From Eledone cirrhosa (taxonomy: Eukaryota), in NCBI GenBank assembly GCA_964016885.1, contig OZ024742.1:301630001-301694000 (forward strand): a stretch of DNA of 64,000 nt. Reading direction: 5' to 3'. The notes beneath the pieces are model-generated. The model was not told where the DNA came from and did not search any database. It worked only from the letters and a program-made list of their open reading frames with translations. Both the position numbers and the translations under genes were made by a program. Positions 3,001 through 64,000 of this stretch are shown here, piece by piece (the stretch's first letter is position 1; every line of letters starts with the position of its first letter).

Positions 3001-3035
3001 CCCTAACACTAACCCTAAATCTAACATTAATCCAG
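1..3035. repeat. Degenerate hexamer-periodic array: (AACACT)n grading into (GACGCT/AATGCT)n, with a few AACCCT-like units at the 3' end
   Basis: 6-nt periodicity is visible throughout. The ORF track shows only low-complexity LTLT/ADAN/VLVF translations with repeated frame changes. Confidence 0.9.
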
Positions 3036-3149
3036 AGAAAAAAGTCATTTGCAATCACATTTAAGGTCACTCTTTAAGATATAGAAGATAGGCATTACAT
3101 TTTAATGATTTTAATTTAAAGAGAATCACGCTATACGATGCAACACAAT

Positions 3150-5340
3150 AACAAACGACACCACACTAACCTACACTACACCAAACCAGATTATACCATA
3201 CCTTGGTAAATTTATGATAGGTTTCCATGTTATAACTACACCAAACTAAATCATACCAAACTACACCATAACCAAACCACACCATAACAAACTACACCAT
3301 ACTACATCACACCATGCTATTGAACTAAGTGTGAAAAATTTTCTTCCTGCTTTTTTTGTCTTTTTTGTGTGTGTGCTTACCACCCAATCTGACATTAAAA
3401 GTGTTCGCAATTAACTATTTGTTTGCACATATTATCAATGAAGACTTTGAAACCTGTTGAAAATGACTAGCTTTGTAGAAAAAAGAGGGAGGATGTGGGT
3501 GGAAATACCATTTACAAAGCTAGTCATTTTTTATTGCAGTGGAAGTCATATTTTTTGTTAATATGCTAAAAGCATAGTCCACAGCGAGCTTCTTGGAAGT
3601 TAACACATGCAAAAATGAAGGAAAAATTTTTTTTTAACATAAATCAAAGTGGAAATTTAAATCCTCACTTATAACAAAGCACACCACAGCACATTAATCT
3701 ACCTCAATCCACACCATATACTTCACCATAACCATACTTCACTATATGGTAAATTTATTACAGAACACCTACTCCTACCATTTACATCACATGTGACAAA
3801 TTTGCTGCCTGCTTTTTTTTTTTTTGTGGGTACCACCTCAAACTAACATCAAAGGTGCTTGCAAATGACTATTTTCCCACACATTATCAATGGATATGAC
3901 ATGGGAATCTATCATTTACAATTGGTTTTCATTTCATAACTTCACCAAACCGAACCAAACCACACCATACCAAGTTACACCATACTACATCACACCAAGC
4001 TATTGATCTTGGTGTGAAAAATTTTCTTCCCGTTTCCTTTTTTTTTTTTGTGTGTGTTCTTACCACCCAATCTGACATCAAAGGTGCTGCAATTGACTAA
4101 CTATTTTTCGCACATATCAATAATTATGACATGGAAAACTGTCGAAAATGACTAGCTTTGTAGAAAAAAGAGGGAGGATGTGGGTGGAAATACCATTTAC
4201 AAAGCTAGTCATTTTTTATTGCAGCGGAAGTCATATTTTTTGTTAATATGCTAAAAGCATAGTCCACTGCGAGCATCTTGGAAGTTGATAGCACATGCAT
4301 AAATCAAAGTGGAAATTTAAATCCTCACTTATAACAAAGCACACCACAGCACATTAATCTACCCCAATCCACACCATAAATTCACCATAACCATACTTCA
4401 CTATATGGTAAATTTATTACAAAACACCTACTCTTACCATTTACATCACACCAAGCTATTGATCTTGGTGTGAAACATTTTCTTCCCGTTTCCTTTTTTT
4501 TTTTTTTGTGTGTGTGCTTACCACCCAATCTGACATTAAAGGTGCTCCCAATTGACTATTTTTTTTCCACTTATCAACAATTATGACAGGGAAACCTGTC
4601 GAAAATGACTATCTTTGTAGAAACTTCACCAAACCACACCATACTACATCACACCAAGATATTGATTTTGGTGTGACAAATTTTCATCTGGCATTTTTTA
4701 TTTATTTATTTTTTTTTTTTTATTGTGCTTACCACCCAATTTGACATAAAAGGTGCTCGCAAATTACTATTTTATGCACATATTATCAATGGTTATGACA
4801 TGGAAACCTGATGAAAAGGACTAGCGTTGTAGAAAAAAGAGGGAGGATGTGGGTGGAAATGCCATTTTTATTGCAGCAGAAGTCATATTTTTTGTTAATA
4901 TGCTAAAAGCATAGTCCAAAAGTTGATAGCACATGCAAAAATGAAGGAAAACATTTTTTTTCTAACATAAATCAAAGTGGAAATTTAAATCCTCACTTAT
5001 AACAAAGCACACCACAGCACATTAATCTACCCCAATCCACACCATAAATTCACCATAACCATTCTTCACTATATGGTAAATTTATTACAGAACACCTACT
5101 CCTACCATTTACATCACACCAATGCTCGCAGTTGACTATTTTTTTCACATATTATGAATGAATATAACTTTGAAACCTCTCGTCAATGATTAGCTTTGTA
5201 GCAAAATGAAGGCAGAAATTGGGTGGAAAAACCATTCACAAAGCTAGTCATTTTTAATTGCAGTGGAAATCATATTTGTTATTAATATGCTAAAAAAATA
5301 GTCAAATGCAAGCATTTTGGAGGTCGGATTAGTTGATAGG
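3150..5340. repeat. Complex tandem duplication of a several-hundred-bp unit with CACCA/TACCA pentamers and an 18-bp hairpin
   Basis: The block 'actagctttgtagaaaaaagagggaggatgtgggtggaaat' recurs near 3466, 4151 and 4820, with a variant at 5190. 'aaatcaaagtggaaatttaaatcctcacttataacaaagcacaccacagc' recurs near 3641, 4301 and 4969. Confidence 0.85.
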
Positions 5341-5478
5341 ACATAAAAAAACAAAGGAAAACAAATATTGTCTATATGTTCCTGTGGAAAGTCGGGTCTT
5401 CTGTATTAGTGTGTGACGCCAGAGGTCATGGTCGTGTGTCATTGCCCTTGAGAGGTGCAATTGGGAAAGGTCGGCTTA

Positions 5479-6060
5479 GAAATATTTACTTCTGCGTTCA
5501 CAGATTGATTTTTTTTTAGTTTCAGAAGATCCCATTAAGGGTGAAAGCAGCCGATTCTTTGCTTAAACTTTAATCTGTTATTTTAATAAATATTTGCTCT
5601 ACGGTTCTTATATATTTGATATATATTTATCCTTATCGAGCCCTCTTTGGATGTTAGTCTTCAAATTTATTATTATTACTATTTGGCTCCCTTGATTGAG
5701 TACTCTATTGACTTATATTCATCATGCAGAAACATCTGAATATTTCTACAAAGAACATACCCGTACCAAGCAGGAAGAAATACCTAAAACTACGTCTCCA
5801 CGAACCAAAGTATCGTCTTCCTGTCTTCCTTCGGTTGCAACGTTTTTTGAAATATTTACTTCTGCGTTCACAGATTGATTTTTTTTTTTTTTTTTTTTTT
5901 TAGTTTCAGAAGATCCCATTAAGGGTGAAAGCAGCCAATTCTTTGCTTAAACTTTAATCTGTTATTTTAATAAATATTTGCTCTACGGTTCTTACATAAT
6001 TGATATATATTTATCCCTATCAAGCCCTCTTTGGATTTTAGTCTTCATATGTATTATTAC
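5479..6060. repeat. Two tandem copies (~370 bp apart) of a fragment of the element also at 43247-43340 and 44250-44303
   Basis: 'gaaatatttacttctgcgttcacagattga...tttcagaagatcccattaagggtgaaagcagcc' occurs at 5479 and 5849, and similarly at 43247. Confidence 0.75.
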
Positions 6061-6144
6061 TAATATATATATATATATATATATTGTGTGTGTGTATATA
6101 TTAGTTTATATATGTGTGTATATATATATATATACATACATACA

Positions 6145-6512
6145 TATTGAGAGCATTGGCCTTGCAATCGAAAGGTTGTGAGTTCAATTCTCACACCGGG
6201 TGATGTGTTGTTTCCTTGAGCAAGACACTTTATTTCACATTGCTCCAGTTTACTCAGCTGTAGAAATGAGATGATAGGACTGGAGTCCCTATCATTCCAC
6301 TGCAAAGTGGTCGTGGAGGTGCCACGGCAAAAAAGCACCCAGCCCACACTGTAAAGTGGTCGTGGAGGTGCCACTGGAAAAAAGCACCTAGCACTCACTG
6401 TAAATGAGGTTGGTGTTAGGAAGGGCATCCAGCTGTAGAAATCAAGCCAGAATCAGTTCCCGTCCCACCCTTGCAAGCAGGGAAAAAGTGGACGTAAAAT
6501 GAAATGATGATG
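6145..6512 (+). mobile_element. tRNA-type SINE (family A) with RTE-like 3' tail ending in (TGA)n
   Basis: B-box-like 'gagttcaattctc' and core 'tccttgagcaagacactttatttcacattgctccag'. The tail is shared with the RTE at 9345-9600. Near-identical copies occur elsewhere in the window. Confidence 0.8.
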
Positions 6513-6513
6513 A

Positions 6514-6845
6514 ATACTCCCAGCTGTGGTCACCCTATAGTTTCAAACTAACCATGGAGCTTGAATCAATCCAATGAAGCTACACCAAGGAGGTTGCCAC
6601 GATGAAGGAGATAAACTACTGGGAGAGTCTAAAAGAACTGAAACTCTACTCCTCGGAATGAAGACGGGAGAGATATGCAATGATATACATATGGAAAATC
6701 TTGGGGGACTAAGACCAAACTTTCGCATTGAGAACTGGACCAATTCTCGAACAGGACGTCACTGTGTGGTACCAAAGGTCCCGTCTTCCACATCTAGAAT
6801 CAGGAGCAGCTATTCCAATAGCCTGGGGTTCAAAGGCCCTCAACT
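6514..6845 (+). mobile_element. CR1/L2-group LINE RT C-terminal fragment (degenerate)
   Basis: Frameshifted peptide pieces PQLWSP..LESIQ..RRERYAMIYIWKIL..RTGRHCVVP..SLGFKGPQL resemble CR1/L2-group ORF2 C-termini. Confidence 0.55.
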
Positions 6846-6917
6846 TGGTTTTCAAAATTTAAATTTGTGTTTCCTCTTCATCAATGCTTCAAGCAAGCTA
6901 TAAAACTCTGTTATATT

Positions 6918-7280
6918 TCATCATCATCATTTTATGTCCGTTCTTCTACGCTAGCATGGGTTGTCCTGTTGTGGGCAGTGTCCGGTCGGCTGACCTTGTC
7001 TTGCTCATACGGGAACTGATTCTGGCTGGATGTCCTTCCTAACACCAATCTCATTTACAGTGAGTGCTGGGTTTTTTTGGGTTTTTTTCGTTGCACTTCC
7101 ACGACCACTTTGCAGTGGAATGACCCCAGTCCTATCATCTCATTTCTACAGCTGAGTAAACTGGAGCAATGTGAAATAAAGTGTCTTGCTCAAGGAAACA
7201 ACACATCACCCGGTCCAAGAATTAAACTCACAACCTTTCAATTGCAAGGCCAATGCTCTAACCACTGAGCCATGTGCCTT
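6918..7280 (-). mobile_element. SINE family A copy
   Basis: Reverse complement of 6145-6512, with a (CAT)n tail at 6918. Confidence 0.8.
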
Positions 7281-7299
7281 CTATTGTTGACAATGTTAG

Positions 7300-8250
7300 G
7301 TCAGGTGACCATGTCTTGCTCATAAAGAACTGATTTTGGCTTGGTTTCTACAGCTGGATGCCCTTCCTAATGCCAACCGCTCATTTACAGTGAGTACTGG
7401 GTGTCTTTTGTTGTGATTCCTCCACGACTACTTTACAGTGTGGACTGGGTGTTTTTTACCGTGTCACCATCACGACCACTTTACAGTGTTTCGGCCTGTT
7501 CTCATGAAAGATATATTGGCAGGTGGGATGGAGTGGTGTATACTGTATGTATGTTTCAGCCTTGGCCCGGGCCCGAGGGAAGTTGGGGTTTCTGTATTAC
7601 CTTATAAGGCCAGAGCTCTTGGTCCTGTGTCATTGCCTTTCAGAGGTGCAATTGGGCAAGGTCAGCTTTTATCACTTCATCTCAAGTCTTTCTGGGACTT
7701 TATGTAGCTGTCATCCTTCATACGAATCACATGTCCATACCAACATAATCTCCTCTCCTGCACAACATTTGATTCCTCTTATGCCTAGTTTCTCTTTCAG
7801 TTTGTTTATGCTTTGCTGTTCGCGTATATTACTATTACACATCCATTGGAGTATACAAGCTTCATTCCTTTCTAATCTACGCAAGTCTTCTATACACAGC
7901 GCCCAGCTCTCACTACCATGCAACATTGCCGTTCATATGCACACATCATACAGTCTACCTTTTATTCTGAGGGAAAAACCTTGTGGCAGTAGCTCCCTCA
8001 ACTTCTTCCATCCCGTTCTTTCAGAACACCCCCCCCCCCTCTGCTGCTAATTAGGTATTGTTTTTACCAAGTCCACCCAGACTTTGATGTCACTTGTTTT
8101 CTGCTTACTGTCCTGGTGCAACTGCTACATGTAAAGCCTACATTCTTAACTAAACTTCCTGAGATCCCACTACATCTCTTGTGCACCCATAGTTTGCATA
8201 TGGGGCAGAGGATGGAGTTTCTACCTACACCTCTCCTACATAATGAGCAC
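7300..8250 (-). mobile_element. Degenerate 5'-truncated RTE LINE (3' part of RT, PHD-like insert, 3'UTR)
   Basis: Peptides MLHGSESWAL..LRRLERNEACILQWMC and CSLCRRGVGRNSILCPICKLWVHKRCSG are paralogous to the element at 9345-11727. Confidence 0.85.
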
Positions 8251-8291
8251 ACACACACACATATATACACACACTCACATATACATATATA

Positions 8292-9330
8292 CTAGCCGAA
8301 TTACCAGCGCATTGCTGTGTTTCACACATTTCACACATTTTTTTTGTAAGAAAATGATGATTGATTTTAAATCAGTGATATAATTTATGGAGAAAAACTC
8401 AATATTACTCAATGTAAAATATAATGCATGAAAAATTGGAAAACATCATTTTTTGTAATATATCAAATCAAAATCGCATTATTAACGGTGAATTGGCAGT
8501 ATCGGTAGAGGGCATGGACACCATGCTTTCTAGCATAGTTATGTCCCTTTACGATCTGAGTTCAAATCCCGCCGAGGTTGACTTTGCCTTTCATCCTTAC
8601 GGGGTCGATAAAATAAAGTACCAGTAATGCACTGGGTAATTGCTGGCCTTGTGCCTAAAGTAGAAACAATTATTAAATCTTATTCTTATTTTGTTTCTTG
8701 TAAATAATTTTTTTCAAAATATCAATTGAAAACTTTTGTGAATAGGCATCATATCTGGTCATTTACCTATGGTTTAAGTTTCATATAAATCGAAAGGGAA
8801 AAGTTTTCAGTGGGGGGGTTTGTACCCCTGTGGACCCTAATAAGGGGTTTAACCACCATTAAGGTGTCTTATAGTATTGAAATTTTGTGAATAGGCATCA
8901 TATCTCTCCATTTATCTATGGTTTAAATTGCATATAAATCAAACCGAAACAATTTTCAGCGGGGATTTTGTGCCCCCTGCTGATCCCTAATCGGGGGTTT
9001 AACCCCCATTAGGGTATTGTAATTTTATTGAAATTTGCTGAAATGATGTGAATAGGCATCATATCTTGTCATTTACCTATGGTTTAAATTTCATATAAAT
9101 CGAAGGTAAAGTTTAAGCGGCGGTTTTGTGCCCCCGATGAACCCTTTGATTAAAATGAAATATACTTATACAAGTACCCTGGGCAATGTAGTTTCAAAAT
9201 ATATATGGTTATGGGGGTCTATCTCCAAAACCATAGGAGGAGTTCGTAAAATCTTGTTCCATTTATTGGCCAAACTTTTCACTATAGGGTGTTTAACCCC
9301 ATTAGGATGTCTTAATATTATTGAAATTTA
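8292..9330 (-). mobile_element. Non-autonomous Helitron-like element with internal ~140-bp tandem repeats, interrupted by a SINE
   Basis: The minus-strand end reads '...gcaatgcgctggtaattcggCTAG|t'. Three repeats of 'tgtgaataggcatcatatct..catttacctatggtttaa'. A homologous copy lies in the opposite orientation at 23885-24405. Confidence 0.45.
8485..8675 (+). mobile_element. tRNA-type SINE (family B)
   Basis: A-box-like 'tggcagtatcggtag', B-box 'gagttcaaatccc' and tail 'ttgtgcctaaagtagaaacaattatt'. Many copies occur in the window. Confidence 0.8.
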
Positions 9331-19559: not shown

Positions 19560-20017
19560 TGAGGAAAGACTGTTCACTGAGCAACAGTAGCTATAACCCG
19601 AAAAGAAGAAAAGATCAACATCATCGGTAACTACTGAGCCACAGGTTTTATGTCAGAGTTATCCCAGTTTCCTAAGCTGCCTTTTCCTAGAAGAATGCCC
19701 TGACAAAGGCTAGGGGTCCTTCACTCCCAAAGGTTTAACTGCGCGATTGGGTACCCAGCCCAATTATTTCTATGTCCCCGTGCATATACATACACATGCA
19801 TACATACATACATGTATATACATATTTACACATTTTTGGATGGCCGATGAGTTCTTCCACCCTTTGTCAGGTTTTGTTTTTTGTCCTACAGGTTGTCCAA
19901 AATCAACCTTCTCACCAAGTAAACTTGGTGGGGTTGCCGGTTTAGTCGCCGACGACCCGACTTTGCGACAGGTGGTACTGGGTTACATGTTACCAGTAGC
20001 ACTCAAAAGTGACCCAA
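19428..20017 (-). mobile_element. Short non-autonomous RTE derivative (5' module + 3' end, no RT)
   Basis: Starts with the conserved 5' module and ends in 'gcagccatcat'+(TGTA)n, like 12318. No RT coding sequence lies between. Confidence 0.7.
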
Positions 20018-20126
20018 TACATACATACTTACCCATACATATATACATACATACATTCACACACACCAACATACACACACACACATATACATACATACAT
20101 ACATACATACATACATACATACAAAC

Positions 20127-21890
20127 ATTTGTGGACGATCTGAAACTCTATGCCAAGAACATGGATGGGATGAAGAAAAATCTTGACCTGGTTACAACGT
20201 TCTCAAAGGGTATAGGAATGGAGTTTGGCCAAGATAAATGCTCATACATGACTGTAAAGTGGGGGAAAACAACAACCCAATCTAGCAACGTTGTCATCAA
20301 TGGTCTAACTGTTTCACTGATATCTGATGGGGACTGCTACAGATACCTGGGGATAGATGAGAACATATGTTATAATGGTATCTGTAATAAAGAACGCGTA
20401 ACCAGGGAACACTACACCCGATTAAGAAAGATCTGGTCATCGGAACTCTCTGCGCAAAACAAAACAGTGGCTCACAATGTGTTTGCTGTGCCTGTCCTAA
20501 CACCAACGTATTGGACAATAGGCGAAATCCGAGCAGTTGATGTTGGAACTCGAAAAATACCGAACAACACCGGAAACTTCCACATCAACAGTGACATAGA
20601 CCGCCTTTACTTGAAACGTAAGCAGGGAGGCAGAGGCCTAACATCAGTCCAGACAACATTTGAATGTCGCATCTTATCTCTCCGACAACATCTACGAACC
20701 TCGAAGCGTAGGAGCCTGTTTCTAGAGCAAGTCTATCTGCATGAAACAGATAAGATCATGAGAGTTGGGAAGGAACTCCTGAGTGATATTCCCTGTGTGA
20801 TAATCAAAAACTCACACCCAGGGATGTCGCTCAGCAGTATCGCAGTGAATCCATGGATGAAAAACTGCATGCCTATCAGCAAAAAATCATGCATGGATAT
20901 GTTGGCCAGGAAGCTCCAGAGTGAGAGTAATATAGATAAGGAAAGTAGTCTATCTTGGACCAACAACCGCTATATTGGCTCCCACTTTGAAGGATACGCT
21001 TTTGCAATCCAAGAACAGGAGATTAGCACGAAATACCTGATTCACAAAAGAGATAGGGATGTAGGCAAAAAACCTAGATGTGATAACAAGTGCAAACTCT
21101 GCAGAACTAACATCGAGGATATCACCCGTGTCATCAGCAGCTGTCCAAAGATGTCATCGCGGTACTATCTACCCATGAGGCATGATGTAGTGGCCAAAAC
21201 ACTGTACAATGCAGTTCGTAAAAAAAGATAGCCCCGATAATAAACACATTAAAAGCTACAACAATGTGGAAGACATCCATGTACATAATATGAAAGAGTA
21301 CTGGTGGAATATTCCAGTAAAAACCCCAATAAAATGCAGGCATAACAGACTAGATATTATGATATGGGACAGGGAGAAGAAAACATACACAGTAGTGGAA
21401 ATTAGCTGCCCAGCAGATGCCAATATAATATCAAAGATTAGTGAAAAGGAGAATATTTATGCAGAACTGATGAGAAATCTGCAGATACTCCACCCTGATT
21501 ACACCTTCAGATTTATGCCTGTGGTTATTGTGGCACTGGGGTATGTTAGTAACTGCCTCAATACAAATCTTGAGAAGCTAGGCTTCACAGGAACAGAAAG
21601 AACACAACTAGTTAGGAAACTACAAGTACAATCCATTAATGGAACAGTAAAAATATGTAAAACATTCCAAACATTTTGCATCTAATAACTGCATATACAC
21701 ATGTACACAAACAACTCAAAACATCCACATCCACACATAAAATAACATACATATCTACACATGCATACATACATATCTACCTAGTTGATGTTGTGTAAAT
21801 TCCAATGAGAGAGTCTTGTGTCTATGTTAGAAACCGACTCTCTCTCTCTCTATTGGTAAAACTTTGTGAAATTATAAAACCAGAAGAACA
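20127..21890 (+). mobile_element. 5'-truncated R4/Dong-like non-LTR retrotransposon (RT + CCHC + restriction-like endonuclease) in (CATA)n
   Basis: FVDDLKLY, YRYLG, RLYL..GGRGL, CKLC..C zinc knuckle, RHD, and endonuclease-like motif NRLDIMIWD..VVEISCP..K. Frameshift near 21225. A 3'UTR hairpin is followed by (CATA)n. Confidence 0.88.
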
Positions 21891-22956: not shown

Positions 22957-23021
22957 TATTTTATCTGATGAAAGCACACCATAATTTAACTTGGTGTCCT
23001 TGAAATATGTATAATGAAATA
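22957..23021 (+). ncRNA. Minimal type I hammerhead ribozyme motif (Penelope-like element end)
   Basis: TATTTTAT-CTGATGA-stem II(aagcacacca/tggtgtcctt)-GAAA-tatgta-TA-ATGAAATA, with the same spacing as 43597-43661. Confidence 0.65.
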
Positions 23022-37000: not shown

Positions 37001-40000
37001 TATACAACAAAATTTCTCTGCTGGATATGAACTTACAACTCATAAACTACCAGACCAAACTCTTCCTCAGCTCCCATTTCACACACATTGCAATCAGAGG
37101 GAAGACTAATTAACTAAATAAAGATTAAAATAATAATAATGAAAATTATTGTGTACAGTGCTCAGGTGCACTACAATTCATCAAAGATATAGTACATAGA
37201 ATATGTACAAATGGAAGGAAAGTGAACAGTGTATGAATTGTGATATACATACAGACATGCGATTGATAGGAGATACAAAGAAACAGACAAAATATGTACA
37301 GACCATACATACACCACATCCAGGTGGAAGACTGAGAAACTAAAATAATGGAGATTGGTAAGAGATAAAAAGAAACAAACAAAATACGTACAGACCAATC
37401 TATTGTAAAAATGTCAGCATCACTTAGATATTCACTTGCTCGTTCAATGTCCTCAATATTGTGGAAAAAATTGATGTAATTCTGTTGGAGGAATGTGGAG
37501 AACAGCTCTGCTGACAAATGGGATTTATCAACTACTTCCTGTAAAACAACAGAACATACAAGATTATTTTTATTCACAGTTTTATAAATAACATTACAAA
37601 TATGTTTTTAAAATATACATAAATTTTAGGAAAATATATTTTCAAGATAGCTATAATAATATATTTTTTATTATAGCTATCTTGAAAATATATTTTTCTA
37701 AAATTTATGTATATAGTTAAAGCATATTTGTAATATTATTTACAAACAAGATAAAACTGACAATCCATTAAGCTTGTAGTGGATGTGTTTAAGAAAAAAA
37801 CTTAAATGTGAGGAAAATCAGAAGGTAAAAAACAAAAGAAAAAACAACAGTTTGTTCAATAACAAGCAAGGAAAACTGTTTACAAATTATAGTCTTTTCC
37901 CCACTTCCTCTGCCAACTGCTACAGATCTTCCTCTTGCATTAACATTCAGTGTCTGAACTCAGAACACAACGTATCTCACCTACATATGTTCCCCCACAT
38001 TCTACTGAGTGCTCTGGGTGCATTTTATCCTGGCAAACTCTCAGATCAGCCAAGGGCCTGTATCTTGCTTACAGATATTCCCGCTCTCTACCAAGGGCAT
38101 TTATATTAGCACTGGCACTAGCGAGATCGACATGTCTTTGCAGAGTTCTCTCTATCCTTTCTATGTTAGTAGAATTGATTTAACCCTTTAGTATTTACAT
38201 TATTCTATATTTACTATTGTAGTTTTTTGGTAAACACTTTATTTCAAATAATTATCTCACATAATATTGAATCTGAGATTTTGATATTTATTTTGAGAAC
38301 AATACCTTAACATCAGTTTGAATAGAAAGAGGCGAGAGAATTCTGGCCAGATACAGCCAGTTTAAACGCTTCACTTTAAAGTATGTGCTAAGTCTATTAA
38401 TAACAATATGATGAATTAGCTAGGACTAAACAACAACTACTGAGCATTTAAAATACTCTGGTATAAAACCTGAGTCAAACAGATAGAAACAAAATAGAAC
38501 AGAGTAATACACTAACTTCAGGAACTTCAATTAATGGTAGCCTCTCATGATGGACTAAATGAGCAGGTAGCCGAGACTGGTTCTGTGAAGGATCTGTTTC
38601 ACCTGGAATAGCAGAAAATAGGACAATAGATATATAGAGAGCTCTATTTCACCTGGAATAGCAGAAGACAGGACAATAGATATATGGAGTTTTATAGATT
38701 GACAGCACCATCATACCACAACACCATCCCAACACAGTACCCTCCCACCACCATACCATACATAGATTGACAGTATCATGCCACCGTCCCAACATAATAC
38801 TACAACACCATCCAACCATCCCAACACAATACCACAATACCATCCCACCATACCACAATACCATACATAGATTGACAGTACCATCCCACTATCCCAACAC
38901 TACCACAATATCCCACAACAATACCATTCCACTATACCAACCCACCACAATACCATCCAGTTAATCCAAGGTAAGAGAAATAGATGTAAAAACAATGGAA
39001 GAGATAAAAACAACTTATACTTACGTTTACAATAAAGTATTTTTCCTAAAGCACGGAAGAGAAATAAGGACCCATCTTTGCCACCAATACATGGCATAGA
39101 CTGACCCTCACCGGAGGAAGAATCGGTACTTGTGGTGGCTTTCTGTTTCAAGTGGGAAGTTGATTTTGACTTGTGCTTTCGTTTCTGGGAGAATGTACCA
39201 ACAAGATCGGAAGTGTCTGAGATTGAAGAAGGATGATATTAAATATATTTATGTTCTCATAACAAAACAACAACAACAACAACACAAACCAATATATTGA
39301 AATGTGATGTCAAATAGAAAATTAGCAACTTCATGAATGCAAGGCATGCAATATATCATCATCAGGTCGAGCTTGCTCGGCTTTCTACGACACGTTTCCT
39401 CCATCCATCTCTGCCTCTCATAGCATTTGCCAATTCTTTCGCAGTTGTCCAGTATCGTCCTCAAGTTGCTTGACGTATGTCTTCTTGGGACGACCAGTGT
39501 TTCTTGCACCATGAGATGGACTCCATAACACATCACCTGCTATTTCTTCCTTGCTGCGCCAACAGTGGCCAGCAAATCTGAGTCTCTGTCCACGTATTGA
39601 CCTGCTGATAGTTGGTATATTGCCATAGAGATCCATATTTGTTGGGTGTTCCCTCCAAGACACGTTTAAAGCAGCACGGAGCATACGTGTGTATGCCCCG
39701 TCTAGCTTTTTCTCCAGTTTCGACGTTAGCGTCCAAGTGATAGAGCCATAAACAAGCACAGATTCCACAGCAGCTCTGAAGAAATTCCTTTTCAGTTAGG
39801 CCGGCAGGTTTGATTTCCATATTTTTTCCATTGCATTCAATGCTCCCCAGGCTTTTCCCAGTCTGATGTTAACATCATGTTCTGTGGAGGCGATATAGCT
39901 ACCCAGGTATTTGAAGTCGTCAACTTGCTTGATTATATCGCCGTTTAAACTTTGTATACCAACTGAGGAGTCTTGGTTCAGATAAATATATTCTGTTTTG

Positions 40001-43000
40001 CCTGCGTTGACAGAGTCCGATTTCCTTTGCAACTGATTCGATGCTGTGAAGTAGTGATATTGCATCCTTAAGGTAGTCAGCGAGGACCGCTAAATCATCC
40101 ACATAGTCAGCATCAGTGATTTTCTGAGCTGCATGGCGTCTACACTTTCGCTTTGTGAGAGTGAAACCAAGCTCTAAGTTTTCGTCCAGGGCTTTTCTCA
40201 ATACATAGTCGAGGCAGATGATAAAAATATATGGTGCAAGAGTATGCCCTTGGAGTACTCCTGCAATGATGTCAAAAAAGTTGGTATCTCCATCAGGTGA
40301 GCACACCATTGCGCGGGTGTTTTTATATAACATCATGATGGCATTTACTGTCTCCTTTGGCAAGCCATAGGCTAGAAGTATCTCTCTCATCCTCCCACGA
40401 TGGATGGAATTGAATGCTTTTGAAAAGTCAATAAACAGGAGAGTTGCTGGGAGGTTTTTGGTTTTTTACGCATTCCAAGATACGCCGAATAGTAAGTATT
40501 TGCCCTGATGTTGATCTGTTGGTGCGGAAGCCATTTTGGTTTTTTCTCAGCAAGGGGTCAATGACAGGTCTTATTCTGTCAAGCAACATGAGATTGTATA
40601 TCTCTGCGGCAATTGCCATTAGTGTTACGCCACGGTAGTTTTTAGCCATTCCAAGATCGCCCTTTTTGGGAAAAGGGAGTATACATCCCTCAGTCCATTT
40701 GTCTATGGGGTCTTGATTATAGACACCATTAAACAACTCTAGTAGGATTGGGTGAAATTCAGGTACCTTCCACACTTCAGCTGGGATCTCGTCGAGTCCG
40801 CACGCTTTTCCGTTACCAATACTTTTCACTGCTTTCTGTAGTTCCTCCATAGTGAAAGGACCTTTCTGTATTTGGTGTTCCTCTGTAAAAACGGGTATTA
40901 TTTCTTCTTCGATGATCTGTGGTGCTTTGCCAAGTAGGTTCTGAAAATGTTGTTGCCACAGTTTTAAACGTTCGTCTTGGCTGGAGGCTTTCAGTTTGGC
41001 TCTGTCACTACTTTTTCTGCCACTAATTTCATTGACAGTTTTCCAGACTTCAGCAGACCTCTTATTGCTGACAGTACTCGAGATATGATTAATCTTTCTC
41101 TGCATGTATTCGGCTTGCTCAATTTCATACTCACTTTTCAGTGTTGTACAAGTAGCATTGAAGTTACTAATGTTTTCTGGAGATCGTTGAGTGTCTTTCA
41201 ATTCTGCAGCTTTTCGCAACTCTTTGCGCTTTTGGCGTATCCTCTCTGTTTCCCAGAGTTTTCGTTTTTTAACCTTGGGTTTTAATATATACTTAAAATA
41301 TATAATAATCCTCACTGCCACCATCATAATTTAACAACCATTTAATAGCAATGGTTGGATGGGTGTGTTTTATCATGCACTAGCACTGCCAAACAAAAGA
41401 ATGGGAAGACTCTTCAGCTATACTGAGGACATAAGTTATCTAGTGTTGGCGTCATGATAAAATACACACAGTAGGGCGCAAGATCTCATGCCAGGCCCCT
41501 CTGAATATCAGAGATTCCACTTGAATACTGACCAATCTGTGACATGTCCAAACATTGCTAGCAGGAAAAAATGGCATTAAACCATGATGATGATTGTATT
41601 AGTGTTGTTGGAGTGCTGCTAACACCTTGTCAGAGTCTACTGTATAGGACCCAGCTAGTAAGAGGTATGGTAAATCTGGAGATCTTTGGTTAACACCTTT
41701 GTAATTGACTCACTACCTGCTTGCTTTGGGTTTACCTCAACAAAGCTAACCTAGGACTACCTACTAACACATTGAAATAACTACAAAAATTACAAAATGT
41801 GAATTTAACAAACCTTTTAAACAAGAAAACTGCAATGTATTGACAGCTCCTCTAATATCACCATTGCTGGACAGAGCTATAGATTCCAGAATAGTTTTAG
41901 ATGGCATCTTTACCTTACTAGAACTCTACAAAACAATATTACACAATTAAAATCATATATATCTATCTATATATATTGTGTGCAAAGCAGCCAAAGTATA
42001 TGATAAAGATATATCTGTATATATATATATATATAGAATGATAGATATATATAGAATAGAAGCACACACGACTGCATAAATGTGTATATAAATTTACACA
42101 TTTTTAGCATATAGACATGTAAACATACCAATATATATATATATATTCCTCTGTATATTGAAACAGTGAATAGAAAAGTGATGAAGAAAAGAGAAGTGAG
42201 GTGAAAGGAAATTAGAAGAGAGAATATGATGGGATAAATGTTAATATTATATTAAGTTCACTCTGTCAAAACATTCAATCATATTACCCACAATCAAAAT
42301 CTTAGTGAGGACTTAATGAGGGAGAGCAGTGCTCACGACACTTCCATGATTGATAAGTTATCCTCATCCTGGAAACCAGGTTCAAATACTTACAATAGAG
42401 TGGTAAACTAAAACAAAATTCTTAAGTATATGTTTAGTATGAAGTGTGTAATATAATTTAAAAAAACAAAAAAAAAGTTGACTGACCTTTGAAGATTCTT
42501 TTAAAGCTATTTTAGTAAGTACTTTGGTAAGAATGGTAAGTGCTACAGGGTTGAAACTGAAATAACAAGAACCCAAATTTATTTTGATCATTCAATGACA
42601 AGTTATTTAGGTCACTGTGGGATCCTATACCTTTCCACATATAAAGTCAGAAAATAGCACAGCTCCGATGACTTTCAGAAACATTTTTCACACTCAGAGT
42701 TGCTGAAGCATGGAACAAACTACCTGCATTGGTTGTTAGCTGTCGAGACACTGCATTCTTTAAAACCTCCATGTTTCCTGAACACTATACCTGATATCCC
42801 CCTCCATACACACGCACACATGTATATCATGACTCATACATTGTTAATTCATTTTCCTGACATTTGTACATTATTCTATGTACTATACATGCACCTTTGA
42901 TGAGTTGTAGTGCACATGAGCATTGTACACAATTTCATTATTATTATCTGTCTGACTCCCTAAAACTCGAGAACCACCCAACCGACTTTTTTCAAACTTT

Positions 43001-45483
43001 ACATATGTAATACTTATGGTCCTGTGAGTGTTTTGAGCAAAGAATATTTCAAATTTTCAATGTCCTAGGGACCGCATTACGTGATTCAGCGATCCCTCTC
43101 TATAATTCTTAGTCTTTCTTTTTAGATAGATACATAGATATAACGTTGCGCCCTTACAATATCTGTCTGGCTGTCTGCATTACGACATTATGACGCTATA
43201 TATGTGTGGGTGTGTGGGTGTATATATATAGTGTGTAACGTTTTTCGAAATATTTGCTTCTTGGTTTTTTTAGTTTCAGAAGATCCCGTTAAGGGTGAAA
43301 GCAGCGATTCTTCGCTTAAACTTTAAACTGTTATTTTAATATATATATATATACAATGATATTAAATAAATGGTAACTATATTTATAAAACTATATTTAT
43401 TTTATTATATATATTTCAAGGGTAACCAAGATAACATTGGTATGCTTTCATCAGATAAAATACAAGGTTTATTTTATAAATAGAGACATACCCATGAAAA
43501 CCATACCTTATCGGTTGGAAATTCACTGGATAGTGAATTTCCAACCGATAAGGTATGATTTTCATGGGTATGTCTCTATTTATAAAACAAACTTTGTATT
43601 TTATCTGATGAAAGCATACCAATGTTATCTTGGTTACCCTTGAAATATATATAATAAAATAAATTTAGTTTTATAAATATAGTTTCCATTTATTTAATAT
43701 CATTGAATATTTACTCCAGTAAACTGTTGAGTGCTCTAAATCAGTTATAAACATTTATATTTGTCGGACTTCCAACAAATTAAATACCACTTTTACTTAT
43801 CATCATCATCATCATTTTACGTCCACTTTCCCCTGCTTGCAAGGGTGGGACGGGAACTGATTCTGGCTTGATTTCTACAGCTGGATGCCCTTCCTAACAC
43901 CAACCTCATTTACAGTGAGTGCTGGGTGGTTTTTGCCGTAGCACATACACGACCACTTTTGCAGTGGAATGATAGGGACCCCAGTCCCTATCATCTCATT
44001 TCTACAGCTGAGTAAACTGGAGCAATGTGAAATAAAGTGTCTTGCTCAAGGAAACAACACATAACCCGGTCTGAGAATTGAACTCCCAACCTTTCGATTG
44101 CAAGGCCAATGCTCTAACCACTAAGCCATGTGCCTCCTCATATATATATATATATATTTCGTTTCTGTATATATATATATAATTATATATTCGTGTACAG
44201 ATATTTTTGCATACACAATAACAAAATATAAACAAACGGATTTATTTCACGAGGATCGATAAGGATAAATAGATATCAAATATATAAGAACCCTAGAGCA
44301 AATCCTGAGCAACGGCGGGCCATTCTGCTAGTTATTATTATATCCCTAATTCCGAGGTCGATAAAATAAAGTACCAGTAACGTACTGGGTAATTGCTGGC
44401 CTTGTGCCAAAAGTAGAAACAATTATTATATCCCTAATTCTTCTCATCTACAATTGTTTCTACATTTTGGCACAAGGCCAGCAATTATCCCAGTGCATTA
44501 CTGGTGCTTTATTTTATCGACCCCGTAAGGATGAAAGGCAAAGTTAACCTCGGCGGGATTTGAACTCAGATCATAAAGGGCCGTAACTCTATCCTGCAAA
44601 GCATGGCGTCTGATCTTCTATAATATCCCTCACCCTTCCCATCTGTAACATCCCTAAACCTTCTCATCCACAATATCCTAAAACCTCCCCTTGTATAATA
44701 TCCTTAAACCGTCTCATCTATATCCCTAAACCTTCCCTTGTATAATATCCTTAAATCTTCCCAAGGCTGACCTAGGGCTAAACAACAAAGCATTAGCAAG
44801 CAGTGTTGCTTAATTTTGTCATTTTATCTTCTGAAAAGAATTCCTCAGATTTTGTCCTGGAGAATCTAAAGAAAACTTACTTTATATAACTCATTCCAAT
44901 ACTGTGTTGGATCATAGAGGAAGTGAAGAAAGCTTACCTTATATGGCTCATTCCAATATTGTGTTGGAAGTCACTGGGAAACAAAAGTCTTTCATTGTGG
45001 CTACCACTTGAAGAATCACTTATTACAAACACCAGTGGGTTCAACCCTGTAGACATATATTTTCTGTAAAAACAAATTAAAAATAAATAGAAATTATATA
45101 TAAATATATGTGGGTTTGATAGATTGAAAATATTTTCCATGACATTTTTATAAAAAAACTATTATTCATATATATGTATGTACACATTTATTTGTATATA
45201 TAACATCAGATAGAATGCTTTGGTGTATTCATTCCAACTCTCTGCCCTCTAAGTTCAACTTTCATCCTTTCAAGGTCAATAAAAAAAAGTAGCAGTCTAG
45301 TATTAGGGTCGATTCTTCCGCTATATCTCTCACCCTCTCTCCTTCTCTGGAAGAAATCTGCTGTGTCCAAACCTAGAGAGGAAATGGGCTCTGCCAGATT
45401 TTAAAATGCTCAAGAAACACTATGTTAATGCCCTTACAACTCCACCAGGAATTACAGGTCCATACATTCATTCATACATATAT

Positions 45484-45523
<40 letters not shown>

Positions 45524-48500
45524 CATCAAACAAACCTATATTACTGGTACTAAGATGGGAAACAGTTATGGAGGAGGCTGGAAAACCAGTAATATATTGC
45601 TTTCAATACTACCAACTATGCTGTAAAGATATCTGGCTTGGTATCAATGTTATATATAAATATTATCCTCATATGATGGTGGTAGCAGGCAAAGAAAGGG
45701 GAGGAGTAAGTATCTGATTTAAAATAGGCACACTGTAGACCTGCATATTGTAGGGAACGACTAAAAAGATTTGTCAAGAAGGACATCCAGCTGTACAACA
45801 TTGTCTCAAAAAGTTTCATCCAACCTATGCCAGCAGCATGGAAAAGTTAACATAATGATGATGATAATTATAATTATTATTATTATTATTAGCGTGGAGT
45901 TATGGCCCTTTATGTTCTGAGTTCATATCCTATTGAGGTTAGCTTTGCCTTTCAAACCCTTACATGGTCGATAAAATAAAGTACCAGTAATGCACTGGGG
46001 TCGATTTAATCAACTTTTGCCTCTCCCCAAATTGCTGGACTTTTATTATTGTGGATTGGCAGTATCGGTAGAGGGTCGGACGCCATGCTTTGCAGCAAAG
46101 ATTCACGGCCCTTTATGGTCTGAGTTCAAATCCCGCCAACGTTAACTTTGCCTTTCATCCTTACAGGATCGATAAAATAAAGTACCAGTAATGCACTGGG
46201 TAATTGCTGGCCTTGTGCCAAAAGTAGAAACAATTATTATTATTATTATCATTAATGATTGGCTGAATCAAAATTGTGTCAAAAGTGCCCTGTAGACTTG
46301 GCTTACCAGGTGCTTATATTTTCATTACGAGCATTTGTCTCAAAGTAAAACAAAAAAAAAACACACACACACTAAGTCGATTTTATGGGCAATAGTTTAA
46401 GATCGCTTGAATGGTGAATACTTACTGGATAATAGAATGAAAACTAGCAGGATCCTGGAAAAATATATTTGGATAATCCTGAAAAACCAAAGTTAATGAC
46501 AATAAATCTTACCATGAAGTTCATTACATTTTATAAGTTTAATTCTCCACTCAAAACAGGGTTTTGCATGATGAAAACAAATATAGAGTCATTTCTCTAT
46601 CTATAGCCATGGCTGTGTTTAACCATGTCTGTGCCTATAGCTATGTCAGCATCTATAGCTATATATGTTCCTATAGCTATGTCAGTTCCTATAGTTATGC
46701 CAGTGCCTATAGCCATGTCTGGGCCCATAGCCGTGTCTGTATCTATAGCCATGTCTGTGCCTATAGCTATGTCAGTTTCTATAGCTATATATGTTCCTAT
46801 AACTATGCCAGTGCCTATAGCCATGTCTGTGCCTATAGCCATGTCTGTGCCTATAACTATGCCAGTGCCTATAGCCATGTCTGTGCCTATAGCCATATCT
46901 GTGCCTATAGCCATGTCTGTGCCTATAGCCATGTCTGCACCAATAGCTACATCAGTGTCTATAGCTATGCCTGTGTCTGTAGTTATAGCTGTACCTATCA
47001 CTGTATCTGTAGAGTCAAATATATTATTATAAAAGAGTGTTGGCTATGACCTTAAGATTTGCTAGTCTCAAGGCTTGTTCAAATGTTAAAATGATAATGA
47101 TGATCCAATATTGAGTCCTCACATCAGTAAATACTTATTACTCATCATTTATCAACCCCATATTTAACCCTCTTATGAGCATATTTCTAATAAAATACAC
47201 TATTTCAATTAATGAAGAATTTTTAAGGTTTTACTAAAATTATCTGACAAGGTTTTTCCTGGTTGTCCTCTACTACAGCTTCACCCACTATTCAACATCT
47301 ATATGCATCACATGTCCATACTAACACAGTCTTCTCTCCTGCACACTAGATATGATTCTTCTTATATTCAATTTTTCTCTCAGTTCATCAATACCCTGTT
47401 GTTCATGCATATTAACATTACATATCCAAAAAAGCATGCTTACTTCATTTCTCTCCAGCCTCTGCCCATGTCTCACTACCATGTAACATTTCACTTCTCA
47501 CACAGGCATCATATAATCCTTCACTCAGAACAACCCTTCAGTTTTCAACAGAGGTAGCAGCTATGTCTATAAATTGCTAATAATCTCAGGATACAAACCT
47601 CAACAAGGATAATCTTTCTTTGAAACTGTTCACAACCAAGAAGGTCCAACCGTTTGTATTTGCTAGCTCGCAAAAGGAAATCTTTGAAAAGATTGATCTG
47701 TGATTCATAGTTAGAACCCTCCATACTGGAATAATCTGGAAAGAAATGTCAAATATATTTATTTCAAATGTTGTTTTCAAAAGAAATTAAATATTATACA
47801 GAAATGGGAAATTTCAGAATGAAATTTTAATGATAAAATTCAGGTTTTTATAATTCAAAAAGTTTGGGCAAAACTTGAAAATTGAAATTGAACTTTGATT
47901 TGAATTTTTTTCTATTTTTTCTTACAATCAAGTTTGAATTTAAATTTCAGGTTTTAAAATCTCTACTTAAATTTCTCTTTCCAACAAAATAATTTTATTT
48001 ATTTTTCAGTTCTAACCATTTTGGAACTTGATATTGTAGAAACTGAAGATTAAATTATTGGGCAGCAACTCTGAATAAAAACTGACTTAGACCACATTGT
48101 ACATACGTCCCCCCACACTACCAAGTTCATTGAGTGCTTTTTATCATGACACCAGTACTAGGAAAGTTGTTATGTCTGACATAAATGCAGAGTCTTTTCA
48201 CTCACTTGTTTGACAAGTTTTCTACAGCTGGATGCCCTTCTTATCACTAACAATTTTACAGAAATCCTCACAATTATATTGTAAATACTCCATAAATTAA
48301 CCATTTACAAACTCTACCTACATGCTGTACTCCATCAATCAACTCTTCACAAATTCTACTAACCAGCTGTATTCCCTGTATTGGAGAAAGTTTCAAAGGT
48401 AGAAGTGAGAGGGTTAGTCCATTCTTCAACATCACATTTGTACTTATTTGCAAGGACTTTAAGAGTTGTTGTCTTCCCAACACCAGAAGGTCCAGTCAGT

Positions 48501-61005: not shown

Positions 61006-61032
61006 ATGGTTGAATCATTGCTGGGACAATGA
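61006..61032 (+). promoter_or_regulatory. 8-codon uORF (MVESLLGQ*) whose stop overlaps the ATG4 start codon (caATGA)
   Basis: gcgccATGG Kozak context at 61006. TGA at 61030-61032 overlaps the ATG at 61029-61031. Confidence 0.6.
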
Positions 61033-63081
61033 CAGATAACAATGCTGCTTTATCCTCTTCACGAAGCGCAGCAAGAACACTAACAGCCGCCACTGGCACT
61101 ACGGTTGTAGTTGGTAACACTACTGCAACTATTTGCACTGTTGGTAATACTAGACTCGGGACGTCTGGACCTTGTTCACCCTTAACACATTTATCGTCTT
61201 CGCCTTTACCTTCACCTACATTTACGAGGCAGAAGGCCACTAAAGAAGGTGCTGGTTGTGGCGTTTACAATACAGATCACTATCGAGAACAACCGCAACA
61301 GCTGCAGAAGAAGAAAAAGAAACAGATGCAAACTCCAGCGCCTGAGCAAGATGTCTCACTACACAATCACATTCCCCGTCATCGTTCCCAATATCATCAG
61401 CATCACCATTCCTCGTCACCTGTTCCCAAGGAAGCGACGGATGCCTCGTCTACTATTGACTGTGTCTCCTGCTGCCCTGCACAGAGTAAAAAATATCTTG
61501 CTAGAATGTCGCCTCATCACTGTCAGCAAGGCAAAACCCATCATGGCTCTAGTGTGACCGATACGGATGAAATACCTCAACTAGTTCGAAATCCGCTTTC
61601 GTGTGATTCTCCGACCTCATCTGTGGAGATTTCTCCAAGACATACCCCTTCTTCGACTAAACGTATTCTTCCATCAGTTCCATCCTCACCACACCAACAC
61701 CGCTCCCATCGTCACCGATCGAACAGTGGACAAAGTAGTCGATCCTCTTCATCATCCCCATCTCGTCATAATACAGCTGTTTCAGCCAGTCCTCCCTCTG
61801 ACAGCGCTATTGACATTACTAAAGGAAGTCACAAGAAAATTCTGCCACCATCTCCCATAGTCATTGATTCACATGTTCGAAGTGCTAGGAAAAAAATGGA
61901 TGGTGGTGGTGGTGGTGGTGGTGGCAGTGTAATGTCTGCGCCGATATTTCCCAACCCAGCCCCTTTTATCCCCGAACGTTCTATTTCATGTCCATCTCCA
62001 TCATCAAGTGGACCTGGTAGCCCGGCCCGTGCTTCACCAGCATCACCGTATTTGGATAGCAGAAGGAAAGATGATATTGTGCTCCCTCCAACCAGGTCGA
62101 CAGCTGCTGCTCGGGCCCGTTCTAATAAGCAATCGTATACTGTCACAACATCATTATCATCATCACCTACAACAACTACAACAGCTACAGCCATCACTAC
62201 AGCCAATGCTACAGTTACAACTACCAAAAGCACCAACTACAAAAATGTCGCTGAAACTGAAAAACACAGATCTTATTTACCGTCGGATCAAAAAACCAAT
62301 GATTTATCTTCCTATAGTCGTGGGAACATATCATCTAGTAGTGGCTCGGTTGCCGGAGACGGCTTTCCTAAACCATCTGTAGATATGAAACACAAGTCCT
62401 CCTCAAATGATAAACACAACTTAGCTAATATTGATTCTAATTTTATTCAGAACTTTTATAAAACCAACCAAAAACTTGTCCAGTTAAGGGATTCTCAACC
62501 CTCATATAGGATTTCCAGTAAAAACAGAGTTGGACACGAGATCAATGCTGCTATTCGAAGTGGTTATAACACTAGCCCTAGTCTTAGAAGTACATACACA
62601 AGTAGCAATAGAAAAAACACAGGTTATAGTCACACTCTCGGTAGTAACACTGGCTATACTGATTACAAAGGTAGCTACAGTACTTTTAGTAAAGATAGTG
62701 GATATGGTAGCGCCGGGAACACGAGCGATTATGGAAGTTATTCAAGTAAATCCAGTGGTCATCATAGAGGAAAAGTTAAAAGCCATGACAAAAAAATGAA
62801 AGGTTCTTGTGAAGAAGTGTACTGTGTGGAAGAAAAACCGAATCGTCCTTCTTCCAAAGAACACGTTTATTATACAGCTGACCGCCCGAGTCGTAGTAAA
62901 ATAACCACAAGTAGTGGGAGCAGCCACCGTGCTAGTAGTGTACCTGCCAGACGTTCTATGTCAGTTAGTGAATTTGCCAGTACTTCAATTGATCCTTTGC
63001 CTGGTAATGGTCAAACTGATGGCGAAAATCTTGAAAAAGTTAAATCAAAACTCATGTCAATGTGGAACAATGTAAAGTATG
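61029..63081 (+). CDS. ATG4D: First coding exon of an ATG4C/D-type cysteine protease (C54), with a long Ser-rich disordered N-terminus; the gene continues beyond the window
   Basis: 2053-nt uninterrupted frame ending LEKVKSKLMSMWNNVKYG|gtaagt, matching the ATG4C/D signature (K.K.K....WNN[VM]KY[GS]W). An in-frame stop lies upstream at 61011. The C versus D assignment is uncertain. Confidence 0.8.
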
Positions 63082-64000
63082 GTAAGTCGATTTTTATCCC
63101 AACTTGTTACTGAAACTTTTAATGTTATTCAACAATCTCTGCTGTATTTTAACATCTGTTTATAGGGTAGTGGACACAGCATGTGAGAATGGTTTAGAAG
63201 TTCGCCTCACAATCATTAGGTCTCGGGTGTGATCCTACTGCTTGATATTTTGGGCAAGTGTCATTTACTATGGCCCTATGAGTGAAAGTGGGTAGACAGA
63301 AACTGTGGAAGCCTGTCGAATGGACTACCTGTATTTCAATTGACCACCCTTGTCACACAGTGTCACGCTGAATCTCCCTCAAAATGACGTTATTGGTACA
63401 CGTTTCTATGGATTACTCAGCCACATGTTAATTCCACGAGCAGGCTGTTCTGTTGATCAAACAACTGGAGCATTCATTGTCGAAACCGAAGGGGATTCAT
63501 CTCATTCATATGGCAATATATTGACCAGAAAAAATAAACGGAATATAGAAATGTTTGGTTAATGGTCAGTTTTATTCAGGTAAACAACGATCACCCCGCC
63601 CCTCTATTTCTCTCCACCTGAAAACATATATTCTTAACATAAAACAGTGAATGTGTTATTTCAAAGGTCTCCATATACGATACAGTAATATATATATATA
63701 TGTATGTATGTATGTGTGTAGTGCACCTGAGCACTGTACACAATAATTTCCATTATCATATATATTGATATATATAAATGAAATACTGGATTTAATGAAC
63801 CTCATTCACTCACAAATAACCGATATTGTACTATGTTTAGAGAGACACGGATGCTAAATATTTACAAACTTGAGTTACTATAAGTTAAATCTCCGTCACC
63901 CACACAATACAATTTTCAACAGTTCCCCTCTTATTACTCTTGTGTATATTTTATACTTGTAGCCTTACTATATATAACAAGTTTAAGAACTTACTATATA

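Follow-up and report, generated by a model that had tools for sequence, protein, structure and literature searches.

A hammerhead-bearing palindrome in a RAD17 intron of Eledone cirrhosa, probably a head-to-head insertion of a Hydra-clade Penelope-like element

An intron of RAD17 in the octopod Eledone cirrhosa holds a long palindrome with a minimal hammerhead motif on each strand. This raises the question of whether the host gene keeps the palindrome as a switch for a ribozyme, or whether a transposable element left it there in the course of its own copying. The window analysed here is the whole stretch of 64,000 nucleotides from contig OZ024742.1 (positions 301,630,001 to 301,694,000), and all coordinates are positions within it; copies of the same family were followed through the genome, which is ~3.0 Gb in size. 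Our results indicate that the palindrome is likely a by-product of element copying rather than a RAD17 switch. We are fairly confident of a reading in which a single head-to-head insertion placed two short pseudo-LTR (pLTR) copies of a Hydra-clade Penelope-like element (PLE) in a (TA)n tract of the intron, an event that was likely twin-primed and is likely neutral.

The palindrome and its parent element

RAD17 lies on the minus strand, where tblastn with queries P0003 and P0002 matched 16 exon pieces running from 52185 to 30911. An exon peptide matches RAD17-like proteins, at 81% in Octopus sinensis and at 77% in Argonauta. Together with the GT-AG splice sites at 42557-44937, these pieces confirm the location in a RAD17 intron that had been proposed from the letters alone. 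The features on which the argument turns are the following.

42557..44937, minus strand: RAD17 intron carrying the insertion, with GT-AG ends read between the flanking exons 44938-45063 and 42487-42556
43338..43353, no strand: (TA)n target microsatellite at the left end of the insertion
43354..43535, minus strand: left copy, a short pLTR of a Hydra-clade PLE (arm comparison, unit mapping, class A)
43398..43462, minus strand: second hammerhead motif, in RAD17 pre-mRNA sense (descriptor; predicted cut after 43406)
43528..43535, no strand: junction, made up of the 4-nt loop GGAT and the AGTG common to both copies
43532..43797, plus strand: right copy, a pLTR from unit position 9 to end site B, tail included
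43597..43661, plus strand: minimal type I hammerhead motif (descriptor; covariation over 11 family representatives)
43706..43797, plus strand: tail of 92 nt that runs from end site A to end site B and is confined to the right arm
22957..23021, plus strand: solo hammerhead motif of a related PLE family, core at +22965, outside the RAD17 coding span

Of the 174 positions in the two arms (43354-43527 and 43532-43705), which are reverse complements of each other, 5 are mismatched, and the repeat search lengthens the arms to 182 nt at 96% identity. Arm comparison therefore upheld the 174-bp arms and 4-nt loop of the original prediction. Two of its details had to be corrected: the antisense arm, taken to be perfect, is a 97% match to the ribozyme arm, and the limit at 43705 was wrong, given that the right arm carries on as element sequence to 43797 and the whole insertion covers 43354-43797. 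The left copy corresponds to unit positions 1-190 of the pLTR in locus L064; one of its limits is the inferred 5' end of the RNA (ACTATCC, ~43534), and the other is end site A, where it adjoins (TA)n. The right copy is 94-97% identical, over 269 nt compared, to the pLTRs of L034, L037 and L064, and its tail is found in full elements as 5' UTR sequence, stopping ~60 nt ahead of the ORF. At the junction, AGTG is part of the CACT/AGTG microhomology of the element's own 5' end. The right end of the insertion passes into TAT(CAT)n, and most sister ends have a flank similar to the (TA)n of the RAD17 insertion.

Judged by its sequence, each palindrome arm is a pLTR of a Hydra-clade PLE, the family being new and both the clade and the arrangement already known. 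The Penelope-like origin first suspected was borne out by linkage to open reading frames, the arms corresponding to the pLTRs of an element with a reverse transcriptase (RT) and, at the C-terminal end, a GIY-YIG endonuclease. In L034, the order is a 649-aa ORF, interrupted by one stop close to its end, an AT-rich 3' UTR of ~1.1 kb and then the palindrome-arm repeat at 96%. L064 is a partial tandem that consists of the end of a truncated copy, a pLTR (94%), the ORF and a pLTR, while in L057 an inverted pLTR adjoins the 5' pLTR; measured from pLTR to pLTR, the unit is 3.8 kb long in L064, where a SINE is inserted, and 4.3 kb in L057. The open frame of the related copy L056 is 743 aa long and contains RIRWR (R for the K of RWK-like), SDKT, YRDD, CNCRNKSNC (CxCX5C linker), VVY..YVG with a single Cys between (no CCHH), CDLC-IEE and CRH, which are the Hydra-clade features given in section 11 of PMC8557442. 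Pfam returned no RT or GIY-YIG match for the PLE ORFs, and the PLE call therefore rests on the motifs and on likeness to Hydra proteins; the clade was assigned from the motifs and by comparison by eye with Hydra-1_Obim. A homolog search with the PLE ORFs brought up 38 proteins, most of them unnamed, with identities of 30-41%. The frames of L052 and L053, 699 and 689 aa long, contain no stop and are 92-93% identical to the L034 protein, which suggests recent activity of the family.

Several other repeats were seen in the window. A high-copy repeat with deep read coverage lies immediately left of the insertion (43250-43337) and also occurs after a PLE end in locus L138. On the right, a SINE-like repeat occupies 43800-44140; it has (TCA)n as its head and resembles a tRNA at its end, for which Rfam gave a sub-threshold tRNA match of 23.4 bits at 44073-44128. 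Two copies of another repeat family make up a further short inverted repeat at 44382-44496, with weak miRNA-hairpin Rfam matches below threshold, and that family recurs at 45958-45999 and 46069-46240. RAD17 introns also hold a broken LINE reverse transcriptase remnant at 39249-41330 on the minus strand (RVT_1 E 3.9e-05, below the cut-off) and an 18-bp minisatellite at 46543-47056 in which several frames are open. At 19714-21685 on the plus strand there is a broken LINE with an RT (RVT_1 E 3.8e-04) and a C-terminal region, which we take to resemble that of R4/Dong restriction-like endonucleases. A 182-aa ORF in L038 was considered as the parent element of the palindrome and dropped, since it resembles this LINE and is merely a neighbour. 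Elsewhere, positions 1-3100 are taken up by a long tandem array of degenerate hexamer type, in which AT and GC skew are strong, and 61014-63113 on the plus strand is a Ser/Pro/Thr-rich open frame of 699 aa with no Pfam match, likely a large exon of a neighbouring gene.

The hammerhead motif and its predicted folding

A descriptor scan of the whole window found the motif at +43605 and -43454, with an identical core in both arms, in agreement with the expectation of one minimal type I core per strand. In the plus-strand motif, stem I pairs 43597-43604 with 43654-43661 (8 bp), CUGAUGA occupies 43605-43611, stem II is a 30-nt region at 43612-43641 and GAAA lies at 43642-43645, followed by UAUAUA; the palindromic AUAUAUAU is at 43645-43652, the cleavage triplet is AUA, and the cut is predicted after 43653. 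The CUGANGA and GAAA boxes, the UH site and stems I and II are thus all present. The self-complementary substitute for stem III also held good, both in this motif and across related families, in which the palindromes are AUGCGCAU and AUACGUAU; RYRY at this position is retained in 78,893 of 80,357 motifs genome-wide. The canonical G10.1-C11.1 pair is absent from the RAD17 motif, which has A-U at a position that is still purine-pyrimidine despite the lack of G-C, and the 11 representatives have A-U in six cases, G-U in three, G-C in one and no pair in one.

Rfam did not recognise the motif: no hammerhead family was among the 17 matches with E<=10 in 42000-45000, and these were only weak miRNA-hairpin ones below the gathering scores. 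The ribozyme call therefore stands on the descriptor and on covariation. The covariation set was drawn from 102 distinct motif strings and comprised 10 of 11 cluster representatives plus the window arm, one internally deleted variant being excluded; the structure for these 11 representatives was drawn by hand by the analyst. Pairing was found in 96.8% of 187 cells, and seven pairs changed on both sides, all five counted ones being in stem II. The score was attained by none of 500 shuffles, and slid controls were 38-62% paired. Such covariation across families argues that the hammerhead motif is kept by selection within the transposon. The solo motif at 22957-23021, which ends in (TA)n, has compensatory changes in stem II with respect to the palindrome motif.

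The lone motif is predicted to be a poor folder, with a stem I pairing probability of 0.04-0.06 and a dimer helix of -3.2 kcal/mol, and activity of the hammerhead is predicted to depend on a dimer or on the protein of the element. On the RAD17 strand, a 480-nt region is predicted to form a single hairpin of -272 kcal/mol in which the probability of stem I is 0.000. In read-through transcripts of either strand, the ribozyme would by this model be locked in the 174-bp hairpin. Such sequestration would follow from the head-to-head geometry, and selection by the host is not needed to explain it.

Sister copies and the origin of the head-to-head pair

A DNA search with the arm gave 855 candidates, 40 of which were scored. 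That the motif belongs to a dispersed family was confirmed by a genome-wide copy count, in which a 23-mer over the core had 2,951 exact matches and its reversed control none. For related motifs, the total from the program count is 78,893, with no match genome-wide for reversed-pattern controls. Sampling found five motifs in 40 evenly spaced 10-kb stretches (400 kb), which corresponds to ~37,000 (95% range 12,000-87,000), and the first 100 motif matches cover 9.9 Mb of one contig, which corresponds to ~30,000 genome-wide. Tens of thousands is the safe count, the total being uncertain; uneven density, for example in tandem retrozyme-like arrays, or a counting effect could explain the gap between the program count and sampling.

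These first 100 motifs make 99 adjacent pairs. Within 6 kb, 27 of the pairs have the head-to-head orientation, three are tail to tail and seven are on the same strand; 14 head-to-head pairs lie within 400 bp. Head-to-head pairs are the usual insertion form, and the RAD17 locus itself is ordinary. Forty-one palindrome loci match its centre exactly, of which 16 have the identical loop and junction. Their state of preservation varies: the core motif is present in both arms at 17 loci, in one arm at 14 and in neither at 10, so that at least one arm is without it in 24 of the 41, and an arm is incomplete (<85%) in 19. Long head-to-head insertions of the same family were also found (L031:6804-9022, L033:7008-9076 and L036:7394-8997), with arms of 0.7-1.1 kb that include the 3' UTR, and the palindrome form is therefore not confined to the short pLTR.

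At their outer ends the copies stop at either of two fixed 3' sites, A (unit position ~182, the end of the left arm at RAD17) and B (~274, the end of the tail). The 41 centre-matched loci comprise 30 A/B, two A/A, one B/B and eight unclassifiable pairs. Another 23 loci begin at ACTATCC; three are solo and 20 have an adjacent inverted partner, all 13 classifiable pairs among the latter being A/B and seven having an unclassifiable arm. Overall, 43 of the 46 pairs that could be classified combine one short and one tailed end, where independent choice would give 50% at most (p=2e-10), and nine pairs from other families, read by eye, are all A/B too.

At the inner end, ACTATCC is a 5' hotspot at which 24 of 100 listed copies start, against one of 100 at a control site 32 nt upstream (counted by eye). 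It lies ~128 nt upstream of the ribozyme cut, and the templates are therefore not ribozyme products. In nine of 23 loci the base before ACTATCC is a G (p=0.004 relative to 15%), as would be expected of a copied cap; this is a weak sign, as the partner arm may have templated several of these G bases. Rare variants tend to be common to the arms of one pair, with a mean of 0.84 in 25 pairs compared with 0.034 in random pairs, in a set of 87 arms enriched for copies close to the query. The idea that ADAR marks had been copied into insertions was dropped, since A>G is not in excess among the rare changes of the 87 arms (23 A>G, 30 T>C, 37 T>A).

We propose the following sequence of events. The element's protein would cut both strands of the target, and reverse transcription would be primed at site B by one target 3' end and at site A by the other. 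The template would be an RNA that has not been cleaved, is likely capped and has its start within the pLTR. The two cDNAs would extend to the RNA 5' end and be joined there through the CACT/AGTG microhomology, which would give the 4-nt loop, and priming at A and B would leave the tail on a single arm. For a full palindrome to form, the B-primed cDNA would have to pass site A, by strand displacement or on a second RNA. In its general form, which we regard as evenly poised, the proposal is that a dimeric RT-endonuclease primes each cut target end at A or B, two fixed internal positions of an uncleaved RNA, and that the cDNAs become linked in head-to-head orientation close to the 5' end of the RNA. 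This would replace fold-back and antisense self-priming as the explanation. As a side effect, thousands of hairpins of 170 bp and more, with a ribozyme motif on each strand, would be produced, and these could supply much intronic dsRNA in a lineage rich in editing.

The main rival of twin priming is that the first cDNA folds at CACT-loop-AGTG and primes its own second strand, or that an antisense RNA primes itself (PMC3846280), with deletion, loop flips and conversion acting afterwards. The commonest junction, at 16 of the 41 loci, is indeed exactly the element's own 4-bp hairpin; the rare variants common to both arms fit such a route, and the frequent partial loss of an arm (19 of 41) fits it if decay is added. 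In its simple form, however, fold-back predicts a loop on the B arm only, as the short arm is unable to template the tail, whereas the 13 A/B loci with a 4-nt loop carry it on the A arm in seven cases, RAD17 included, and on the B arm in six. With 0-1 unpaired bases, 11 of the 41 centres are too tight for a snap-back primer, and six of the 20 inverted partners consist only of sequence downstream of site A, that is, of the tail. Arm instability could account for the tail-only partners and the tight centres as later deletions, and later recombination or conversion between arms could be the source of the flipped loops and the common variants. Taken together, the A/B pairing, the loop on either arm and the tail-only partners favour twin priming, and we consider fold-back rather unlikely. 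The long inverted arms, TA flanks and many copies also recall a foldback DNA transposon or MITE that moves as a unit and is bounded by long terminal inverted repeats; the outer ends are nevertheless asymmetric (A versus B), the centres are variable (17 loop forms in 41 loci) and the arm appears as the terminal repeat of an RT-encoding element, which makes this explanation hardly tenable.

The original prediction had seen in the antisense arm a possible built-in off-switch, with the dsRNA as a likely ADAR or Dicer substrate. As a device selected by the host, this would mean that RAD17 keeps the antisense arm so that the ribozyme is silenced, or makes use of the dsRNA through ADAR or Dicer. The structural part of the prediction stands, given that the antisense arm comes first in the pre-mRNA and the ribozyme is sequestered in the predicted hairpin of -272 kcal/mol. 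Both cores are intact at RAD17, as they are in 17 of 41 sisters, and young repeats have been described as the main A-to-I targets in most metazoans (10.1101/2020.01.19.911685). A function of the RAD17 locus is opposed by the 14 comparable short pairs within 9.9 Mb, by sisters that often lose part of an arm or a core, and by the five sites at which the arms differ. Moreover, a lone motif without stem III and with so weak a predicted dimer helix would likely have little activity to silence. A single Schistosoma minimal hammerhead was reported not to cleave in vitro (PMC4209133), and the PAc ribozyme needed protein (PMC11167929); by analogy and from the folding model, the lone motif is likely inactive. 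A switch selected by the host is accordingly very unlikely in our judgement, and the insertion is likely neutral, as judged from its sister copies. An assembly fold-back artefact seems scarcely credible. While no contig or read of the sequencing runs examined spans the whole locus, the arms have five specific differences and a one-sided tail, the identical junction recurs at 16 loci spread over different contigs, 43509-43546 is matched exactly by short contigs of runs X1 and X3 (38 nt, less than the length required of a bridging match; depth 158 and 150; possibly the assembly's own sample), and sample S2 has a 132-nt contig with two arms head to head. Reads matching the locus come mostly from sister copies, and the A>G differences among them are family variants in DNA.

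Comparison with known systems

The formation of tandem and inverted PLE ends is named as unresolved in section 15 of PMC8557442. A young and abundant octopod family gives junction rules that can be counted, namely the combination of A and B ends, a loop on either arm, tail-only partners and one 5' hotspot. Although the RAD17 locus is ordinary, the family is useful as a large natural record of the PLE insertion step. No paper listed by the literature searches proposes twin priming for Penelope-like elements in its title or abstract, a scope that does not extend to subscription papers such as the PLE reviews of 2005-2006. With tens of thousands of minimal hammerheads, many of them paired in inverted orientation, an octopod would have a large class of RNA that is not annotated; in the main text of the O. 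vulgaris repeat annotation (PMC13282606), the words 'ribozyme' and 'Hydra' are both absent.

Hydra-1_Obim of Octopus bimaculoides is a Hydra-clade PLE (PMC8557442, File S1), and its protein is, by eye, clearly like that of L056. Its hammerhead (File S2) differs from that of the family in the RAD17 intron, which has a shorter palindrome (8 nt) and A-U at 10.1-11.1. According to PMC8557442, the Hydra clade is generally <3 kb, a general trait and no strict criterion, compared with ~3.8-4.3 kb for the present family; the tail is 30-40 nt there and 92 nt here; and the clade has few families, whereas this octopod genome has tens of thousands of motifs. The (TA)n target, a trait of the clade, is seen in the RAD17 insertion and in sister copies. 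Other traits of PLE pLTRs also occur here, such as a partial tandem (L064), an inverted 5'-truncated copy (L057) and an optional tail at one end (43 of 46 pairs); inverted 5'-truncated copies with a tail at one end have already been described for PLEs (PMC8557442).

The minimal hammerheads of metazoan PLEs described in PMC4209133 have, as here, no stable stem III, a palindromic 15.2-16.2 region and a long stem II. Compared with those motifs, the present one has an AU-rich stem I of 8 bp and no bulged base between 9 and 10.1 in the covarying pairing. Dual minimal hammerheads on opposite strands, 100-700 bp apart, are reported in the same paper, most motifs being scattered truncated copies. The present motif count is higher than the 4,000-9,000 given there for coelacanth and Xenopus, but the descriptors differ and the figures are not directly comparable.

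Head-to-head pLTRs with palindromic junctions are in print for the Penelope elements of Adineta vaga (PMC3846280; also PMC2377424). These elements and the Poseidon element PAc (PMC3846280, PMC11167929) have, like the present family, a tail on one arm and an initiator-like TCACT. In vitro, the protein of a Poseidon PLE cuts and extends both strands, with two internal start sites that bound the tail, an uncleaved RNA and a predicted dimer (PMC11167929); the passages on that protein considered here do not deal with inverted pairs. In PMC3846280, the junction is attributed to self-priming on an antisense template. The A/B rule, the symmetry of the loop and the tail-only partners of the present family point instead to both target ends. 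In the twin priming of LINE-1, both target 3' ends prime on the element RNA and the cDNAs are joined by microhomology, which results in a 5' inversion. The present family differs in that its start sites are fixed and internal, and in that the region upstream of site A is often contained in both arms, so that a palindrome is obtained and not a simple inversion.
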